Source: Candidatus Aenigmatarchaeota archaeon (lineage in GTDB: Archaea; Aenigmatarchaeota; Aenigmatarchaeia; CG10238-14; SCSR01). Taken from it: DNA of 64,000 nucleotides. Under the pieces are notes generated by a model. The model was not told where the DNA came from and did not search any database. It was given only the letters and a program-made list of their open reading frames with translations. Location of the stretch: NCBI GenBank assembly GCA_038999725.1, contig JAWBWS010000004.1:717-64716 (forward strand), written 5' to 3'. The position numbers and the translations under genes are program-made. How positions within the stretch are numbered: position 1 is the stretch's first letter; each line of letters opens with the position of its first letter. Below, in pieces: positions 1 through 7,042 of the stretch.

Positions 1-1660
1 CAGTAATGTTTAAAGTGTAGTTTCCACATTCGCTTGATTTTAATAGCCAAGATATCATCGAGCTTTCATTCTCTCCAATCTCGGCTAAAGTTTTCTGCAG
101 GCCTTCGGCTGCAAATTCTTGTGGGGCTTGCAAGCTAACAAAAACATCAGAAGAGTTTCCATTCATCGAAGTGATAAAAGCTTTAACTTCAAATTCTTCG
201 GAAACATTAACAGAAGAAGGAACTTCTATTTTTTCTATCTTAATTTCAGGTTTTAGCTGAACATTTTCTTCTGAAATTTCAGACAAAACTTCCAAGCTTC
301 CCTCTTCTGTTTCAACCCAATTTCCAGCCAAATCAGAAGCATAGAACTTGAAAGATACAATTCCAGCTGAGTTAACAGTTTTTGTTACATTGCTCCATGC
401 CTCCAAAACATTAAGGTTTGAAGACCAAACAGCCTTTCCAAACCTCTTGACCAAAATCACATGGCTAGGGACAGTTAAATCATAAATCATACCCTTATAA
501 CTTTCTAGATTTATTTGCTTGACATAAATCGGCTTGAGATTTTCATCAAGAAAAGTTATACCATAGCCAGCTTTGGCAAGCTCATAAGCTTTTTCTACTT
601 CAATGAACTTAAATTCACTTAAATCCACACCAAATAAAAAGTCTTTAATTCTTCTAACAAAATCCAAGGGATAATCTATTCTTGCAAAGACTTTGTGGTT
701 TGGCGTCACATGAATGTCAATTTCTCCGTTTATCTTGTAAATCCCGTCATCATAAGGAAGAGCAACTATTCTCAAGGGCTTCTCCCATCTTATTTCACCA
801 GCAGAAAGAACTGCAATTTCATCCTCATAGCTCAAATCTTTGAAATACTTCCACCCATGCCTAGTAAAAACTTTAGTTTCCCCATCATAACTTGAAATGA
901 AAGTATAACTTTCATTTTCCCAAGAACCAGAAGAATTCCAGCTGAAGATCCACCTATCCAAACCGAAATCATCTTGCCAAAAAGCAAAGAACTCTACTTC
1001 TTCCCCAACTTTTGCTTTTTCTCTGCTTGCCCCAAAGAAAGAATAAGAAGGGGCTTTTGAATCTTCCTGAGAGGTTGAGTTGTCGATTTCGACTGTATTA
1101 TTCCACCCTTCAACTAGAGGCATGCTAGTTGTTGTTGATGTGGTTGTTACAGGTTCGACAATTTCCTCTTCAGAAAGCAGAGAAGTAGTTGTTGTCGAAA
1201 TAGGTGTGCTTTCGTCAGTTTCTAAGCTTGAACTTTCATTGTTTTCCCCTTCTACCATCACAAACTGGCCTGAAATGTCTTGTGGATTGCTTACATTGGG
1301 AATATTTAGAAAGCCGGAGAAATTCTGGGCCACTATACCTGCTTGTAAAAGAAGGAGAAAGGCTATTGTGAGAATTACTGCAATCTTTAAACCTTTTTCT
1401 CCCTTTTTTGAAGGACAATCTCCTTCCTCTTGATTCGACACTTTCCTCAAATAGCAAAGCTTTGCCGATCCAATCCTTCTTTCAAAAACTACTTTTTTTC
1501 TAATCAATTCCTTGACATACTTTGCAGAAGTATGTCTATGCAAACCAGAGAGCTTTGCTATAGAACCAATAGTAAGGCCTTCTGGATGCTTCCTAAGCGT
1601 TTCTATAATCTTCTCTCTAGGATCTTCAGCCATCATCCCATGTACACCGGTGTACAACAT
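1..1660 (-). CDS. Membrane-anchored winged-helix regulator-like protein with an extracellular Hint (intein/hedgehog-like) domain; C-terminus runs off the window start
   Basis: The minus-strand frame is open from the window start up to a stop near 1802, with ATG at 1660 (ML YTGVHGMMAEDPREKIIETLRKHPEGLTIGSIAKLSGLHRHTSAKYVKELIRKKVVFERRIG = wHTH). A hydrophobic segment follows (LKIAVILTIAFLLLLQAGIVA), then a Thr/Ser-rich linker (TTTTSLLSEEEIVEPVTTTSTTTS). Hint blocks are present: SYDGETKVF... (N-terminal block), IHVTPNHKVF (TxxH block) and MIYDLTVPSHVILV (C-terminal block). The ORF track missed it because there is no stop inside the window. Confidence 0.6.
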   Translation of the reverse strand, partial: MLYTGVHGMMAEDPREKIIETLRKHPEGLTIGSIAKLSGLHRHTSAKYVKELIRKKVVFERRIGSAKLCYLRKVSNQEEGDCPSKKGEKGLKIAVILTIAFLLLLQAGIVAQNFSGFLNIPNVSNPQDISGQFVMVEGENNESSSLETDESTPISTTTTSLLSEEEIVEPVTTTSTTTSMPLVEGWNNTVEIDNSTSQEDSKAPSYSFFGASREKAKVGEEVEFFAFWQDDFGLDRWIFSWNSSGSWENESYTFISSYDGETKVFTRHGWKYFKDLSYEDEIAVLSAGEIRWEKPLRIVALPYDDGIYKINGEIDIHVTPNHKVFARIDYPLDFVRRIKDFLFGVDLSEFKFIEVEKAYELAKAGYGITFLDENLKPIYVKQINLESYKGMIYDLTVPSHVILVKRFGKAVWSSNLNVLEAWSNVTKTVNSAGIVSFKFYASDLAGNWVETEEGSLEVLSEISEENVQLKPEIKIEKIEVPSSVNVSEEFEVKAFITSMNGNSSDVFVSLQAPQEFAAEGLQKTLAEIGENESSMISWLLKSSECGNYTLNIT

Positions 1661-1785
1661 AGAAAATGTTTGTCGAACCCCATATTTCCTTAAAGAATCT
1701 TTAAAGACATCTTTTTCGACACTTCTTTTTCTTAACTCCAAAAAAGAAGTTAAATCTTTTATATTGTCGAAACTAAAAATTATAT

Positions 1786-2184
1786 GTGGACCTATTAATT
1801 CTCAAAAGAAAAAACAACAATGAAGCACAATTGGAAGAGCTTTTAAGGCAAATGGATACCCAAAGGGCTCAAATGGCAATTGAAATTGAAAAATTAAAGA
1901 ATTTGGGGGAGAAAATCAAAGAAATCGACACTAGATTGAAAGAAATAGAGAAAGTAATTTCTGTAGGTGGCTTTAGGCTTAGAACAAATTCAGTGAGTTC
2001 AAAAACAAAAGAGGCAATAAAAATGATTCTTCAGAAGTACGGTGAACTGACACCCTCCCAACTCAGCAGACTCATCAAACTGTCGAGAACCAGATGTAAC
2101 GAATATCTTAAAGAAATGGAGCACGAAGGTATAACAACCTCAAGAATAGAGAGTCGAAAAAAATACTATAGACTTCGACAATAA
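1786..2184 (+). CDS. Small coiled-coil plus C-terminal wHTH-like DNA-binding protein (hypothetical)
   Basis: 132-aa ORF with GTG start, transcribed divergently from the Hint-domain gene. It has an E/K-rich coiled-coil N-terminus and a C-terminal TPSQLSRLIKLSRTRCNEYLKEMEHEGI segment with a helix-turn-helix look. Confidence 0.4.
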   Translation: MDLLILKRKNNNEAQLEELLRQMDTQRAQMAIEIEKLKNLGEKIKEIDTRLKEIEKVISVGGFRLRTNSVSSKTKEAIKMILQKYGELTPSQLSRLIKLSRTRCNEYLKEMEHEGITTSRIESRKKYYRLRQ

Positions 2185-2785: not shown

Positions 2786-4867
2786 TTATTTTTTATTATT
2801 TTTATTGTTCCAATCCTTTTTAGTTTCGCACTTTGGATCTAAACACATCCTAAAAGGTCTTTTCCCCTTTCTAAAAACTTGTATAATTGGGGTTCCACAC
2901 TTCTCACAAATTTTTCCTGTTGCTTGAATACTTGCACTATGAGGTAATGGATAGCCTGTCTCACACTTGGGATAATTGCTGCACCCAACAAAGAAAAAGC
3001 CACTTTTCTTAGACCTCAAAATCCTTAGCTCTCCTGTTTTACAGTTTGGACAATTACCAAGCTTTCTCTCGTCTTCTCTCTTTTCAATCAAAGCTTCCAA
3101 GAGCTTTTTACCAATCTTCTTTTCATTTGCTTTGAATTCTTCCAAAATTTCTTCCAAAGTTTTCTTTGCTTCTTCAACCACTTTTTCCCTTTTCTTCTTG
3201 CCTTGATAAACAAGCTCCATCTCCTCTTCAAATTTTCTAGTAAGCTCTTCAGACAAAATTTTTGGACAAAATTCTTTCAAAGCTTTGACAACAGCTTCTC
3301 CAAGCTTTGTAACTTGAATGCTTTTTCCGCTTATGTAGCCTCTGTCGTAAAGAGTTTGCAAAATTTCCGACCTGGTCGCCCTAGTTCCCAGATTTCTAGC
3401 CTCCATCTCTTTTATTATACTTCCTTGAGAATAGCGAGCAGGAGGTTGAGTTTCTTTTGCTAGCTCTTCTAGCTTTATGACTTTAATAATCTGGCCAACC
3501 TTAAGTTCAGGCAAAATCACCTCTTCCCTCTTCAAGTAAGGCTCATAAATTTTAGTCCATCCTGGCTCTAAAGTTCTTTTGCCAACAAGCAAGAAAGTAT
3601 GGCCAGCAACATCTAAGCTAACAGTGTTAGTTTCTCTTAAAGCCTCATCTCCAAAAGCAGCTAGAGTGCGCCTTGCTATCAAATCATAAATTTTTCTTTG
3701 TTGTGGTGTAAGTTTAGATAAATCAGGAACTTCGTGAGTAGCATACAATGCTGGATGCGCAACATCTTCCTTTTTTCCTTCCACAGGCACGAGTTTCTCT
3801 TTCTTCAAAAGCTCTTCAGCAAATTTCTTGTATTGCGGCAAAGAAGCTAAAGCTTTCAAAATTTTCTCATAATTTATACTCGGAGGCAATTTTTGGCTTG
3901 CTGTCCTGGGGTAGCTCACAAACCCCTGTTGATACAAGCTTTCAGCTATATTCATGGTTTGTTGAGGGGAGAATTTAAACTGCTGGTAAGCTTCAGCTTG
4001 CAAGTCTGTAGTGTTGAATGGAACAGGTGGCGCCTGTTTGTACTTTTTCTTTTTTATATCTTTTACTTTTGCATCTTTACCCTTGCATTCTTGCAATATC
4101 TTGTCAGCATCTTCCTTCTTCCAAATCCTTCCTTTTTCATAGCTAGCAACAGCTTCAGTCCCGTTTATCTTGACGTGAAGCTCAAGCTCCCAGAAAGGCT
4201 TAGGCTTGAATTTCCTGATTTCAAGTTCTCTTTCAAACAGAATTGCTAAAGTTGGCGACTGTACTCTTCCAGAAGACAAAATTGCAAATCCTTTTTCAGC
4301 TGCACTCTTTAAGGCAAGAGTTAAGGCTCTTGTGGTATTAATACCCCAGAGCCAATCAAGTTCATGCCTAGTCAAGCCAGCTTCAAGCTGACCGAAATCT
4401 ATATGGGGCAAAATCTTTTCATAAGCTTCTATCAATTCATCTTTAGTTAAGGTTGAGAACTTCATCCTTTTTGCATCATTTCTGTTAGCTAAAAATCTTA
4501 GCACATTATATCCAATCAATTCACCTTCAGTATCATAATCTGTTGCAACTATGAAATCAGAACCTCTCGATACTATTTTTTTCATAACATCGAAATATTT
4601 CTTGGAAAAGGCAGATTCTTTGCTCACTTCAAAACTTGGCTTCCAAACATAACTAAAAACAGGATACTTCCACGCTTTTTCAACAGGAGCAAGGCTGAAC
4701 AAATGTCCGACAGCACATGCCACTATATATTTTTTCCCTTCTCTTTCAAACTCATAATAAGTTACCTTATTCTCGTCTGTATAGGGCTTGAGACTCTTGT
4801 TTTCTGCTAAAGCTTCTGCTATCCTTCTGGCAGCATCCGGTTTTTCAGCTATTATTACTACAGGCAT
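2786..4867 (-). CDS. topA: DNA topoisomerase I (type IA) with C-terminal zinc ribbons
   Basis: Toprim N-terminus (VVIIAEKPDAARRIAEAL, TDYDTEGELIGYNVL), GRVQSPTL, and the active-site tyrosine context GFVSYPRTASQKL. The C-terminus carries CPNCKTGEL...CSNYPKCETGY and CEKCGTPI...CLDPKC zinc ribbons. Confidence 0.9.
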   Translation of the reverse strand: MPVVIIAEKPDAARRIAEALAENKSLKPYTDENKVTYYEFEREGKKYIVACAVGHLFSLAPVEKAWKYPVFSYVWKPSFEVSKESAFSKKYFDVMKKIVSRGSDFIVATDYDTEGELIGYNVLRFLANRNDAKRMKFSTLTKDELIEAYEKILPHIDFGQLEAGLTRHELDWLWGINTTRALTLALKSAAEKGFAILSSGRVQSPTLAILFERELEIRKFKPKPFWELELHVKINGTEAVASYEKGRIWKKEDADKILQECKGKDAKVKDIKKKKYKQAPPVPFNTTDLQAEAYQQFKFSPQQTMNIAESLYQQGFVSYPRTASQKLPPSINYEKILKALASLPQYKKFAEELLKKEKLVPVEGKKEDVAHPALYATHEVPDLSKLTPQQRKIYDLIARRTLAAFGDEALRETNTVSLDVAGHTFLLVGKRTLEPGWTKIYEPYLKREEVILPELKVGQIIKVIKLEELAKETQPPARYSQGSIIKEMEARNLGTRATRSEILQTLYDRGYISGKSIQVTKLGEAVVKALKEFCPKILSEELTRKFEEEMELVYQGKKKREKVVEEAKKTLEEILEEFKANEKKIGKKLLEALIEKREDERKLGNCPNCKTGELRILRSKKSGFFFVGCSNYPKCETGYPLPHSASIQATGKICEKCGTPIIQVFRKGKRPFRMCLDPKCETKKDWNNKNNKK

Positions 4868-4898: not shown

Positions 4899-6497
4899 CT
4901 ACTTCATCAGAATATTTCTTCTGTCTTCTTCAAGTGATATAAGTTTACTTTCCAAATCAGATATCTTTTTAATCAATTTTTCTATCTCAACATTAATCTC
5001 AGAGCTCTTTAAATCTCGGAAGGTTTCTTTAGGTTCAGGTAACTTAGAAAAGCTCTCTCTAATACTGGCAAAAATTTCATTTGGCATGGCTTCCACCTTC
5101 TTTTCCAATTTTTCCAATTTCTCCTCAACTGAAGAAGATAATTCAGACCTGCTTGCCAATTCTTCCATCCTTTCAGCTAATTTAGCCAGAGCCTTTTGAA
5201 GGCTCTCCATTCTTAAATCAAATTCGGCTTTTCTATTCAAAAGATAGTCTACACTTTCTTTCAAAGAGTTGAGCCTAGAAGAGAGGAATTTTATATCTAT
5301 TTCCGATTTGGTCGATATAATTCCACTAATCTTATCTTTTATTTCTTTTATTTCTTTGCTTGTTTCTGTTCTTAGCTCAGATACCTCAGAAACAACCCTT
5401 TGAATAATTTGGGTTTCAAGTGGTTTTATTCTTTCTTCCAGTCTTTTGATTTCATTTTCTAGACTACCTATCTTTTCTGACTTCACATCAAAATTGGTAA
5501 TTTCATCCTTAAGTTTAGAGACTTCTTCTACAAGAGTTAAAACTTGCTCTGATAGCAATGGCAACACAGATATTTTTTCATCAACTTTTTTCATCATAGA
5601 GGCTTCAATCAATCTTGCTTTTTCTTTCGTTTCATAAATCTTTTCCTCAAGAGAACTTAGACTCTTTTTTATCTCTTCTATAGATTTTGACCTTTCTTCA
5701 GAAAATTCTACCATTGAAGATAGCTCTTCGATTTTCAAGGCAAGCTGAGATAATTTTTCTTTCATAGCATGAAATTCTTCCTCAATTTCCCCTATTTTCT
5801 CGGTTTGTAAAGAACTCTCAAGAAACTTGAGCCTCTCTCTCATCTTGATTATCTCAGTTTTAATTGGGCTCATGTCTTCTCTAGCTCTTTCGATAAGTTT
5901 GAATTTTTCTTCCAGAGCCAAAATTCTATCGCCGAGTTCAATTATCTGTTCGGTTGGCATCAAAATTGAAGATATTTTTTCATTTATTTTTTCAATACTT
6001 TTCTCAAGTCTATTGACGTCGTCTTTCAAAGCAGATTGAAGACTTTTATCTTTCAATTCAGAAATTTCCTCCTCAATTTTCTTGATGACAGAGCTTTCTA
6101 TGGGCTCAATTTTACTTGCTAAGGCTTTTATTTCATCTTCTAGTTTTTTTATCCCCTCTATTTTTGGTACAAAATTCTCAAAATTTTTCATTTTTTCTGA
6201 GATGGCTATAACTTGTTGTGAATTTTCCGTTGCTTTTGAGTTAAGATCTTCCAGGAGTTTTTTGAGTTCAAACCCACCCAAATTTTCAACCATTATCAAA
6301 TCTTCTAACTCATCCAACCTTTCTTTAATTGAGTTGACCGTTTCAACATCAATTGTTTGAAGCAGTTTGAGTTTCTCGTTTATTTCTCCTATGGCTACTT
6401 CTAAGTTAACAAGTCTCTTATCGACTTGAAGAAGAGCAAATTTAAATTTCTCTTCAACTTCTTTTTCCCCCTTTTCTATCCCTTCTGTAGAATCCAA
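4899..6497 (-). CDS. Long E/K-rich coiled-coil protein (structural; function unknown)
   Basis: 532 aa that is almost entirely heptad-like EK-rich sequence (LEEKIYETKEKARLIEASM..., IEELSSMVEFSEERSKSIEEIKK). No ATPase or other catalytic motifs are visible. Confidence 0.6.
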   Translation of the reverse strand: MDSTEGIEKGEKEVEEKFKFALLQVDKRLVNLEVAIGEINEKLKLLQTIDVETVNSIKERLDELEDLIMVENLGGFELKKLLEDLNSKATENSQQVIAISEKMKNFENFVPKIEGIKKLEDEIKALASKIEPIESSVIKKIEEEISELKDKSLQSALKDDVNRLEKSIEKINEKISSILMPTEQIIELGDRILALEEKFKLIERAREDMSPIKTEIIKMRERLKFLESSLQTEKIGEIEEEFHAMKEKLSQLALKIEELSSMVEFSEERSKSIEEIKKSLSSLEEKIYETKEKARLIEASMMKKVDEKISVLPLLSEQVLTLVEEVSKLKDEITNFDVKSEKIGSLENEIKRLEERIKPLETQIIQRVVSEVSELRTETSKEIKEIKDKISGIISTKSEIDIKFLSSRLNSLKESVDYLLNRKAEFDLRMESLQKALAKLAERMEELASRSELSSSVEEKLEKLEKKVEAMPNEIFASIRESFSKLPEPKETFRDLKSSEINVEIEKLIKKISDLESKLISLEEDRRNILMK

Positions 6498-6532: not shown

Positions 6533-7042
6533 TTATATTCTTTTTTCATACTTGAGCCAAAGAATCCAAGAAGCTAAGATTGCAAAGATTAGGCCAAACT
6601 TCCATAAAAAATCATGGATAAACTCAAAAAGGCTAGATTCAACTAAATAAATATAAGCAGTTAGAGCAATCCTTACTATGTTAAAAAAGAAAATTGAAGG
6701 TAGAGCTACAAGAAGAAAAAATAACTTTTTCTTGAGTTTAATAAAAGGAGTTGCCATTGTTAGAGAAAAAAGAGCATAAAGTGATTTCCAGCCTGTACAA
6801 TCCATGTCTATCTCAACAAAAAATATGGTGAAGTTATTCACTACTTTTAAACTTGAGCCATCTAGGCTTGCTTTTGTTCCAAGAGCCAACAAAAGTTTGT
6901 AAGAAAGAAAAGCCACAAGATTCTGCAAAGGTTTATAGGAGAAATTCAAGTACAGTAAGAGGTAGAGTGGTATTGCAAGCAAATTGAATTTGACCAAAAA
7001 CCAAAAAACTTGTAAAAGTTGTTTTCTAGTTTTCCTTCTCAT
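6533..7042 (-). CDS. Small exosortase/archaeosortase-family-like membrane protein
   Basis: 169-aa polytopic membrane protein with an EIDMDCTGWKSL segment (resembling the Cys-containing CSG-x-x-S signature) and FFFNIVRIALTAY (resembling the N-x-x-R-I/V signature) of the exosortase/archaeosortase family. It is shorter than the ~300 aa of ArtA. Confidence 0.45.
   Translation of the reverse strand: MRRKTRKQLLQVFWFLVKFNLLAIPLYLLLYLNFSYKPLQNLVAFLSYKLLLALGTKASLDGSSLKVVNNFTIFFVEIDMDCTGWKSLYALFSLTMATPFIKLKKKLFFLLVALPSIFFFNIVRIALTAYIYLVESSLFEFIHDFLWKFGLIFAILASWILWLKYEKRI

Follow-up and report, generated by a model that had tools for sequence, protein, structure and literature searches.

The window analysed here is a stretch of 64,000 nucleotides from a metagenome-assembled genome (MAG) of Candidatus Aenigmatarchaeota, a group of tiny DPANN archaea of symbiotic type. 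Its minus strand carries the 5' part of a giant surface-protein gene (1..1636) whose product combines a winged helix-turn-helix (wHTH) domain, a transmembrane (TM) helix, a stalk and a Hint domain. This Hint domain is nested in a loop of an immunoglobulin (Ig)-like domain. Comparison with its relatives shows descent from a canonical intein lineage, in which the homing endonuclease was lost, the first residue changed from Cys to Ser, and the Ser, Cys or Thr directly after the intein (the +1 residue) was replaced by an invariant Leu. From the conservation of its other catalytic residues, the domain may process itself next to the membrane anchor in the manner of a bacterial intein-like (BIL) domain, by cleavage and perhaps by ligation, a reading to which we give an even chance.

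The gene and its reading frame

On the minus strand, a frame without stop codons runs from window position 1660 to 1 (553 codons) and exits at the window edge. Residue numbers in what follows refer to this 553-codon translation. The original prediction, made from the sequence of the window, had placed the end of the gene at 1660. The open frame does extend to that position but the start does not lie there: homologs all begin MKAEDP..., so the real start is the ATG at 1636 (the alternative being that at 1633; MMAEDP...), which gives 545 codons within the window. The peptide MLYTGVHG, earlier taken as the N-terminus, is a translated conserved promoter palindrome and not protein. Continuation of the protein past the window edge, also predicted, agrees with P0001, the database copy of the window protein (819 amino acids (aa), 100% identical), which is itself still cut off where the contig stops; its NCBI name is "Hint domain-containing protein, partial" (Candidatus Aenigmatarchaeota MAG). 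A hidden stop or frameshift that splits off the wHTH had been named as a possible flaw of the predicted architecture, and none was found, as wHTH, TM helix, stalk and Hint lie in one uninterrupted frame. The same architecture recurs in at least 12 independent assemblies. A scan of the window revealed no further paralog of the Hint domain, its flanking exteins or the wHTH. The architecture had not been recognised as a described one, and our literature search likewise found no description of it, nor any of archaeal extracellular Hint or intein domains or of inteins in DPANN giant proteins; subscription papers lay mostly outside this search, which makes it weak evidence of absence.

Fold and boundaries of the Hint domain

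The Hint domain is a 159-aa mini-intein derivative (416..892, minus strand; residues 257-415) that starts with Ser1, contains TPNH and YDLTVPSH, and ends with ...AVWSSN followed by Leu at +1. The three motifs on which the original prediction was based correspond to intein blocks A (SYDGETKVF), B (VTPNH, with the TxxH signature) and F (YDLTVPSH). Block G is present as well, the first residue is of the Cys/Ser/Thr type (Ser257), and the C-terminal residue is of the Asn/Gln/Asp type (Asn415, in the invariant ...VWSSN). The profile and structure searches proposed at the time have now been run and show that the Hint fold is real. Pfam Intein_splicing (PF14890) matched residues 257-415 with an E-value of 2e-5 and 24.9 bits, which is below its gathering score of 35.8. 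An AlphaFold2 model of residues 195-465, with a predicted local distance difference test (pLDDT) of 79.9, provided the Hint structure for a Foldseek search in which inteins and BIL domains were retrieved at probability 1.0. Among these matches were 6zgq (AceL NrdHF intein, E 1.1e-6), 6y75 (Tetrahymena BIL2), 2lwy (C. thermocellum BIL), and the Prp8 and DnaB inteins. A sequence search of the PDB with the Hint segment gave just spurious weak matches to TATA-binding proteins. Using HMMER against 1.84 billion (1.84e9) representative proteins, 2,956 Hint relatives were detected at E<=1e-3 and 12 at E<=1e-30.

The boundaries were set at Ser257 and Asn415 because these termini nearly match those of the intein relatives. 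We also considered an alternative C-terminal boundary that would supply a +1 nucleophile (e.g., ...SSNLN/V, where the slash marks the junction). It was rejected, as P0042, P0085 and about 200 relatives align residue-for-residue to ...W[SC][GS]N/.

The Hint domain sits within an Ig-like host domain

The insert is flanked by the two halves of an Ig-like β-sandwich, both on the minus strand: an N-extein half (893..1054; residues 203-256) and a C-extein half (296..415; residues 416-455) that opens with an invariant Leu-Asn. The flanks, ...WIFSWNSSGSWENESYTFIS and LNVLEAWSNVTKTVNSAGIVSFKFYASDLAGNW..., join to a spliced sequence of 99 residues. When this spliced window sequence was aligned to unspliced homologs and modelled with AlphaFold2, a complete β-sandwich was obtained, with a pLDDT of 94.5, a predicted template modelling score of 0.85, and the junction in a loop. 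Foldseek placed the spliced extein in the generic Ig-like/E-set fold and in no specific family; it had no match in Pfam and a weak match of OmpL47 type in NCBIfam (E 6.7e-4). The spliced-extein profile also matched residues 2268-2354 of P0065, a Nanoarchaeota giant LamG protein, contiguously over the junction (independent E-value 7e-13), and this domain of P0065 is free of Hint. The in-frame insertion with insert-free homologs that characterises inteins is thus found here. Since the spliced extein forms one domain and matches the Hint-free P0065, the arrangement is that of an intein in its host and not that of a terminal processing domain. The original prediction of an extracellular autoprocessing Hint domain therefore holds for the fold and the catalytic blocks, and has to be given up for the stand-alone tail that it implied.

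Downstream of the C-extein half lies the next extracellular β-domain (1..251, minus strand), which leaves the window. It occupies the position of the NEW3/CARDB-like domain of relatives in which the gene is unfused, and is homologous to the corresponding parts of P0002, P0005 and P0023. We infer the NEW3/CARDB-like name from these relatives, as Pfam gave no significant match for this stretch of the window protein.

Intein ancestry and loss of the +1 nucleophile

Outside its own family, the closest relatives of the Hint domain are bona fide inteins with LAGLIDADG endonucleases and nearly the same ends. At the N-terminus, P0021 reads CYDKETEILTKNGWKYFKDL and the window Hint SYDGETKVFTRHGWKYFKDL. 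At the C-terminus, the LAGLIDADG intein P0042 reads ...VRRNGKAVWSSN/C (in longer view ...VTVPNHVIFVRRNGKAVWSSN/C) and the window Hint ...VKRFGKAVWSSN/L (...LTVPSHVILVKRFGKAVWSSN/L). These relatives belong to a lineage of canonical class 1 inteins (P0042, P0021, P0022) that begin C-[YF]-D-x-x-T-E-[IV]-L-T...G-[WF]-K-x-F and end ...VRRNGKxxW[SC][GS]N/[SCT]. The window Hint shares with them the fold, blocks A, B, F and G, an identity at either end of up to about 50%, an N-terminal hydroxyl nucleophile, the terminal Asn, a penultimate Gly/Ser instead of His, and in-frame insertion into a host-domain loop, where homologs of the host domain without the insert exist. It differs from them in the Leu at +1, the absence of a homing endonuclease, Ser1 in place of Cys1, an extracellular and non-conserved host, and its fixation throughout the family, for which no empty alleles were found.

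Junctions were counted in the 150 best-scoring proteins, which contain about 240 C-terminal ends. The +1 residue was Ser in 167, Cys in 32, Thr in 29 and Leu in 12, and all 12 occurrences of Leu fell within the family of the window protein. The first residue was Cys in 188 of the counted relatives and Ser in 15. All through the intein lineage, the penultimate place is taken by Gly or Ser, so the absence of the penultimate His is ancestral and not a defect. Descent from canonical inteins is thereby shown, and with it the loss of the endonuclease, the change from Cys1 to Ser1 and the replacement of a Ser/Cys/Thr at +1 by an invariant Leu. A canonical intein is followed by Cys, Ser or Thr, and every family member has Leu416. 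Trans-esterification, and hence canonical splicing, is therefore impossible, and the protein splicing that had been offered as one option by the original prediction is, by the identity of this residue, excluded in its canonical form.

The remaining catalytic positions are retained. In an alignment of 16 family sequences (44-98% identity), 24.5% of the columns are invariant, among them Ser1-Tyr-Asp, the Thr and His of block B, the Asp and His of block F, and WSSN/LN. The first and last residues of the Hint, whose conservation had been suggested as a check, are thus both invariant across homologs. Pattern scans with extein motifs retrieved 10 genome and 6 metagenome loci in which the SYD... and WSSN/L motifs recur wherever the sequence reaches, and no Hint-free allele of the family was found among them. 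The ratio of nonsynonymous to synonymous substitution (dN/dS) of the Hint is 0.055-0.111 at dS 0.5-1.2, which is as low as or lower than that of the flanks (0.04-0.44), and these substitution rates show strong purifying selection. In addition, the Hint has a single N-x-S/T sequon in 2,547 aa (16 members) against 4.34 per 100 aa in the ectodomains, and about 12 would be expected from its own composition. This scarcity in an extracellular domain is suggestive and, as the sequences are related, not a strict test.

Two further observations concern Hint domains and inteins of this kind. In P0005, an insert of about 345 codons (L002 5483-6229) splits the Hint after SYDEETKVLTRK. The opposite strand of this insert encodes a PIN_2 toxin (E 2.6e-14) together with a putative antitoxin of 105 aa, and the sense frame is open throughout this antisense toxin cassette. 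Canonical inteins (Cys1 ... SGN/Ser) also occur within giant LamG-type surface proteins (P0028, P0033, P0040 with 7,293 aa, P0043, P0065, P0136 and P0120), and the named sources of these are Nanoarchaeota, Pacearchaeota and Altiarchaeota MAGs. Most of these inteins have 340-430 aa, a length at which they probably include an endonuclease, and some of the giants contain 2 or 3 intein copies at repeated sites. Extracellular, non-conserved proteins are unusual hosts for inteins.

Possible autoprocessing next to the membrane anchor

The reading that we favour, with a probability that we would put at one half, is a BIL-like autoprocessing beside the membrane anchor. The Hint would fold outside the cell after export and run the two intein half-reactions that do not require a +1 nucleophile. 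Asn415 would cyclise and thereby break the Asn415-Leu416 bond, and an N-to-O acyl shift at Ser257 would turn the Ser256-Ser257 peptide bond into an ester. The ester would be hydrolysed, which amounts to cleavage, or less efficiently be attacked by the amino group of Leu416, which would give ligation as in a type A BIL and a junction that reads ...ENESYTFIS-LNVLEAWSNVTK. The net result would be that the anchor with its wHTH stub is separated from the giant ectodomain by a built-in, enzyme-independent step, after which the halves of the Ig domain could be held together non-covalently, re-ligated or released. Activity is favoured because the ester-forming and Asn-cyclising residues are invariant. 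There is also a chemical precedent in BILs, which have no +1 nucleophile and either cleave or, through aminolysis that follows the cyclisation of Asn, splice inefficiently (PMC4031507). Cleavage is the main outcome in type A BILs, with aminolytic ligation as a minor one (PMC4031507). The position of the module is in agreement with such a role, as it always lies within the first few hundred residues, soon after the signal peptide or anchor, whatever the N-terminus.

Several points weigh against this reading. Ser1 yields an oxy-ester, whose reactivity is lower than that of a thioester. The penultimate Ser in place of His is common to the canonical relatives and so is no argument alone, although it leaves the rate of Asn cyclisation uncertain. 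The AlphaFold2 model of the precursor was built from 7 sequences and is of moderate confidence at the pLDDT given above. The family sequences share ancestry and represent few lineages (hot-spring and sediment MAGs), so that the conservation statistics overstate their independence. The 345-aa insert of P0005 indicates that an intact Hint may not always be needed, and a role in structure alone could likewise account for the strong conservation.

One alternative that we consider unlikely is that the Hint is a catalytically silent insert, a permanent structural or binding domain on the loop of the first Ig domain in which no bond is broken. Such a role would suit the loss of both the +1 nucleophile and the penultimate His, the Ser in place of Cys at position 1, a low dN/dS (which any folded functional domain may have) and the large insertion tolerated by the Hint of P0005. 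However, every residue required to form the ester and to cyclise Asn is invariant in an alignment of which three quarters of the columns vary, and silent Hint-like domains would be expected to lose their catalytic residues. The avoidance of sequons, too, fits a domain that has to fold with precision and to react.

The Hint could also still be an intein in effect, which excises itself and re-joins the Ig halves efficiently by the type A BIL route and persists as a neutral mini-intein without host function, one that precise deletion cannot remove. The two extein halves show strong conservation and, when joined, model with confidence as a single domain, the canonical relatives (Cys1, Ser at +1) in other DPANN giant surface proteins demonstrate that inteins do invade such genes, and splicing without a +1 nucleophile is within the capacity of type A BILs (PMC4031507). 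We nevertheless hold this account to be rather improbable: besides the dominance of cleavage products in those domains, the Ser1 oxy-ester is a poorer substrate for aminolysis, and a selfish element that depends on splicing would be expected to retain its +1 nucleophile, as all of the about 228 relatives counted do. The Leu is instead fixed across sequences down to 44% identity, and the constant position beside the membrane anchor in five architectures would be left unexplained.

Comparison with other Hint domains

Type A BILs (Amitai 2003; Dassa 2004; review in PMC4031507) are similar to the window Hint in their fold (2lwy is among the best structural matches), the lack of a +1 nucleophile, the terminal Asn, a secreted, variable and non-conserved host, and the expected outcome, in which both termini are cleaved and aminolysis ligates inefficiently. 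For the BIL of M. magnetotacticum, the exchange Y+1C is cited in PMC4031507 as having restored canonical splicing. The window Hint differs in being archaeal, in ending with Ser-Asn and not His-Asn, in beginning with Ser1 and not Cys1, and in being nested inside a defined Ig-like domain. The closest sequence relatives checked are inteins with Ser, Cys or Thr at +1, those looked up were archaeal, and the similarity to 2lwy is no greater than that to inteins. As the Hint nests by sequence among canonical inteins, its loss of the +1 nucleophile appears to be independent of that in type A BILs.

Autoprocessing of secreted proteins by Hint domains is also known from the PT-HINT domains of polymorphic toxins and from Hedgehog/Hog proteins (PMC3482391), and neither reading was retained for the window Hint. 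PT-HINT sits just upstream of a C-terminal toxin, which it releases, whereas the window Hint is N-proximal in proteins of >2,000 aa, is followed by Ig-like arrays, and had no Pfam match to PT-HINT or Hint_2. Hog-Hint domains are C-terminal, have a sterol-recognition region and perform no C-terminal Asn reaction; the window Hint lies inside its host domain, whose second half comes after it, and its C-terminal junction has the Asn typical of inteins. A class 3 intein was rejected on account of Ser1.

The membrane-anchored N-terminus

The wHTH (1445..1621, minus strand; about residues 14-72) is IclR/MarR-like and predicted to be cytoplasmic. In the family alignment its invariant columns read HPEGLT...G.HRHT..KY...G.AKLCYL. 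Pfam HTH_IclR matches 10 of 10 family members and MarR_2 matches 9 of 10 (best E 1.2e-5), each single match being below its gathering score, and the N-terminal ~70 residues of the window protein match HTH_24, also sub-threshold (E 0.002-0.03). Searched against the PDB, the family profile found the HTH of the IclR-type regulator TtgV (E 1.1e-3). The N-terminal wHTH of the original prediction is therefore consistent with these matches across the family, sub-threshold as each of them is. The single TM helix and the Thr/Ser-rich stalk that it had named are also present. The helix (LKIAVILTIAFLLLLQAGIVAQN; 1322..1390, minus strand; residues 91-113) is the single strong hydrophobic segment, with a maximum Kyte-Doolittle mean over 19 residues of 2.67. 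As the 20 residues before it contain 5 Lys/Arg and there are 0 after it, an N-in/C-out topology is predicted. It is followed by a Thr/Ser/Asn-rich extracellular stalk (1055..1321, minus strand; residues 114-202), and the sequence past the helix is rich in N-glycosylation sequons.

With a putative DNA-binding domain, based on sub-threshold matches, and a TM helix on one polypeptide, the N-terminus is formally a transmembrane transcription regulator (TTR), for which DNA binding and regulation from the membrane are only predicted. Circumstantial pointers to DNA binding are a conserved palindrome and an array of short sites at the gene's own promoter. Like the TTRs described by Demey et al. 2023 (PMC10269533), which are common in archaea, it has a cytoplasmic HTH at its N-terminus, one TM helix and a C-terminal part beyond the membrane. 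In the window protein, however, the part outside the membrane is not a small sensor but a giant of thousands of residues with a Hint. Homologs, most of which are cut by contig ends, reach >2,295 aa (L006/P0023, 2,517 aa), >2,242 aa (L012), >2,109 aa (L014) and 6,185 aa (P0027), and contain arrays of MG2-like and other Ig-like domains. Of the copies examined, all extend to the end of a contig or of the retrieved locus except two: the short form P0005, which is complete, and P0008, a piece of a gene in three ORFs. What had been pictured as a small one-component sensor is thus the N-terminus of a giant protein, while the placement of a cytoplasmic wHTH across the membrane from the Hint stands. 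In one lineage (P0003/P0004; loci L004, L005 and L019), the fused wHTH is shorter by about 45 residues, among them those of the recognition helix (HRHTSAKY...AKLCYL), and the Hint, the neighbouring small HTH gene and the array of TCGACA sites are all intact.

Five architectures and a conserved gene cassette

The family and its relatives display five architectures. In the window, L001, L004-L012 and L019-L022, the wHTH is fused to the giant protein. In L023 and L013 the genes are unfused and the Hint lies in the giant gene, and in L015, L017 and L018 they are unfused and without Hint. A short form, wHTH-TM-Ig(Hint)-NEW3, is represented by L002/P0005 and, as three open reading frames (ORFs), by L003. 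Finally, L014 and P0025/P0027 consist of signal peptide-Ig(Hint)-giant with no HTH genes nearby. Among the proteins examined, the first residue of the Hint lies at 103-329 (~250 where the wHTH is fused). In L023 the Hint is in the downstream giant gene and the wHTH is on a separate polypeptide, and wHTH-TM proteins without Hint are P0009-P0020 and those of L015, L017 and L018. What stays the same across these loci is an Ig(Hint) close to the signal peptide or anchor at the N-terminus of a giant protein; the linkage to a wHTH is not constant.

The unfused cassette, found in L015, L017, L018 and L023 (one from a Bathyarchaeota MAG, the rest from unclassified sediment metagenomes), consists of a divergent small coiled-coil HTH_24 gene, a wHTH-TM-stalk-NEW3 gene and a gene for a giant secreted protein. 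The second gene encodes 315-370 aa. The third overlaps its stop codon and encodes 1,512 to 4,921 aa with a signal peptide of its own. The giant of L017 is 44% identical to residues 783-1905 of P0023 across 1,158 aa. By this homology the window gene is a fusion of the second gene of the cassette (wHTH-TM-NEW3) with the downstream giant gene, together with the Ig(Hint) module.

The apparently separate wHTH gene of L003 was rejected as a natural split, as it belongs to one gene of the P0005 type in three ORFs (wHTH, signal peptide-Ig(Hint) and NEW3). These ORFs (L003 1580-4532) encode 87, 340 and 114 aa and lie directly downstream of a Peptidase_M50 gene; the locus is either a pseudogene or an assembly error.

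Small HTH gene, promoter palindrome and TCGACA array

A small gene with a GTG start (1786..2184, plus strand; 132 aa) is transcribed divergently from the giant gene and encodes a coiled coil and a C-terminal wHTH of the HTH_24 family (E 8e-7, 29 bits, above the Pfam threshold). It had been proposed as a possible partner, in support of which it is conserved as an adjacent, divergent neighbour of the large gene in at least 14 loci, namely 11 related loci (50-84% identity) plus L015, L017 and L018.

Directly upstream of the start codon of the giant gene is a palindrome, TTGTAC-ACCGGT-GTACA(T) (1640..1657), which is a candidate operator. Its general form is TTGTAC-N6-GTACAA and it is placed between the start codon and an invariant box, TTCGACAAACATTTTCT (1666..1682, minus strand; -41..-25 of the start codon). 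This box includes a TCGACA site and is likely a core promoter with B recognition element (BRE) and TATA box. The palindrome occurs once in the window, where 0.10 occurrences were expected, yet 10 of 100 shuffles gave one. It is kept in 9 aligned loci, in which the centre varies and remains palindromic (ACCGGT, GCTAGC, GAATTC). It is also found just upstream of the wHTH-TM gene in L015, L017 and L018, where the form in these other phyla is TTGTACA-ATAT-TGTACAA.

The same region contains ten TCGACA/TGTCGA sites of strictly alternating orientation (1081..2180, with sites at 1081, 1155, 1193, 1435, 1671, 1716, 1765, 1925, 2081 and 2175), which extend from the small HTH gene across the intergenic region into the large gene, of which they cover the first ~550 nucleotides; the first three fall in the stalk. 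The whole window has 18 such sites against 8.0±2.5 expected, with 10 of them within 1.1 kb, and the extended consensus is tTCGACA[A/G]t. The array is present at syntenic positions in 10 related loci and also in L015 and L017. Conserved peptide islands of the otherwise variable stalk (ISTTTT, EEEIVE, VEIDN) coincide with TCGACA sites, and distant loci keep the sites even where the encoded residues differ. In L011 and L012, the site at +199 is kept but flipped and so encodes different residues. The array therefore looks like a candidate protein-binding array.

Gene content and sites co-vary in three cases. L014 has neither HTH gene and no TCGACA site within 12 kb; in L003 the small HTH is missing and a single TCGACA site is present, but a TGTACA-like repeat is kept; and in L004/L005, where the wHTH is decayed, one half-site of the palindrome is mutated (GTGCAA). 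This co-occurrence points to the small HTH protein acting on the array and the wHTH on the palindrome, an assignment that is suggestive given the small sample. Taken as predicted proteins and sites, the wHTH and the small HTH protein are probably dedicated regulators of the surface-protein cassette that act on the palindrome and the array.

Is Hint chemistry coupled to transcription?

The original prediction had joined these elements into a one-component receptor, in which autoprocessing of the Hint at the surface is the trigger, or a constitutive "site-1" step, that frees or modulates the wHTH, for example through later intramembrane proteolysis. Most family members do have wHTH, TM helix and Hint in one frame, a conserved palindrome lies between the putative TATA box and the gene's own start codon, and the lineage with the deleted recognition helix also has the mutated palindrome half-site. 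Autoproteolysis before regulated intramembrane proteolysis has bacterial precedents in RsgI and SEAL domains (PMC10328401; 10.1101/2023.06.27.546760), and transmembrane transcription regulators are frequent in archaea (PMC10269533). The modules are separable, however. The Hint is found on proteins with a signal peptide only, in loci without HTH genes (L014, P0025/P0027), and in L023 apart from the wHTH; wHTH-TM-NEW3 proteins without Hint are found in other phyla (L015, L017, L018); and P0003/P0004 combine a decayed wHTH with an intact Hint. No gene for a site-2 protease was found in the window, and no M50 relative was detectable in the window or in the other loci. The lone M50 neighbour, that of L003, was rejected as support for a site-2 protease, because this adjacency recurs in no other locus and the gene beside it is broken into three ORFs. 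The part of the prediction that placed the wHTH and the Hint in one frame is upheld, and the signalling link between them we regard as improbable. A coupling of Hint and wHTH is hypothetical, as the modules also occur apart and nothing ties the palindrome or the array to Hint chemistry.

Functional analogues are the SEAL domains of RsgI anti-sigma factors and the microbial GAIN (MAIN) domains, in which an enzyme-independent self-cleaving unit stands between an anchor and large surface or adhesion domains (10.1101/2023.06.27.546760; PMC10328401; 10.64898/2026.05.12.724683). As in SEAL and GAIN domains, cleavage inside a β-structure could keep the fragments associated, and as in RsgI the unit is linked to a cytoplasmic transcription regulator. 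The likeness is one of function only. SEA and GAIN domains are of an unrelated fold and cleave by an N-O shift in a strained loop, as opposed to intein ester formation and Asn cyclisation, and in the window protein it would be an entire domain of 159 aa that is cut out or stays attached. Neither part of the window module has a SEA, SEAL, GAIN or MAIN fold, the host being a generic Ig-like (E-set) sandwich and the insert a Hint. It is conceivable, if very unlikely, that the Hint-in-Ig module has arrived independently at the same logic from a domesticated intein: the adhesin would be held to its wHTH-TM anchor solely by β-sheet complementation within a first Ig domain nicked by constitutive self-excision or self-cleavage, and pulling (host-cell contact) or shedding would expose the stub and alter the wHTH acting on the TGTACA palindrome in its own promoter, while the small HTH protein coats the TCGACA array.

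Neighbouring genes

Further into the window, all on the minus strand, are a topoisomerase I gene (2786-4867; 693 aa, intein-free), an adjoining gene for a 532-aa protein that is almost all coiled coil (4899-6497), and an archaeosortase/exosortase-like gene (6533-7042; Exosortase_EpsH, E 3.5e-16) about 5 kb from the giant gene. Synteny in L001, L004 and L006 comprises DUF460, exosortase, the coiled-coil protein, topoisomerase I, a VTT-domain protein, the small HTH and the giant gene. The coiled-coil protein is kept but fast-evolving in these loci (27-53% identity). The topoisomerase I ortholog of L004 (3132-6842), from a related Aenigmatarchaeota MAG, is 1,236 aa long and carries, behind residue ~496, an insert of Intein_splicing and LAGLIDADG type, and that of L009 likewise gave a split match. 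By these matches, the topoisomerase I intein looks like a presence/absence polymorphism.

Implications for inteins and DPANN surface proteins

Parts of this system are already known: the Hint is flagged by NCBI, and the components are of known kinds (intein/BIL, TTR and DPANN giant surface protein). What is new is a predicted archaeal, independently derived, BIL-like branch of inteins that is fixed in an extracellular Ig domain, together with its fusion to a wHTH and the conserved cassette with its candidate cis-elements. Inteins are usually regarded as selfish elements of conserved cytoplasmic proteins that handle nucleic acids. Because its host is extracellular and fast-evolving, and because the endonuclease and the +1 nucleophile are lost while purifying selection and the other catalytic residues persist, this Hint branch is a clear candidate for the domestication of an intein into an autoprocessing device that serves its host. 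If the proposed cleavage chemistry is true, the module could be turned into a self-cleaving tag of a new kind for use outside the cell.

Giant surface proteins of DPANN archaea are thought to mediate the attachment to host cells. The cassette of a small HTH protein, a membrane-tethered wHTH, a giant protein and shared cis-elements, which several archaeal lineages have in common, gives handles on how such proteins may be regulated. Should the nicked-Ig arrangement prove true, the contact or shedding of a giant DPANN surface protein would be coupled to its own transcription.

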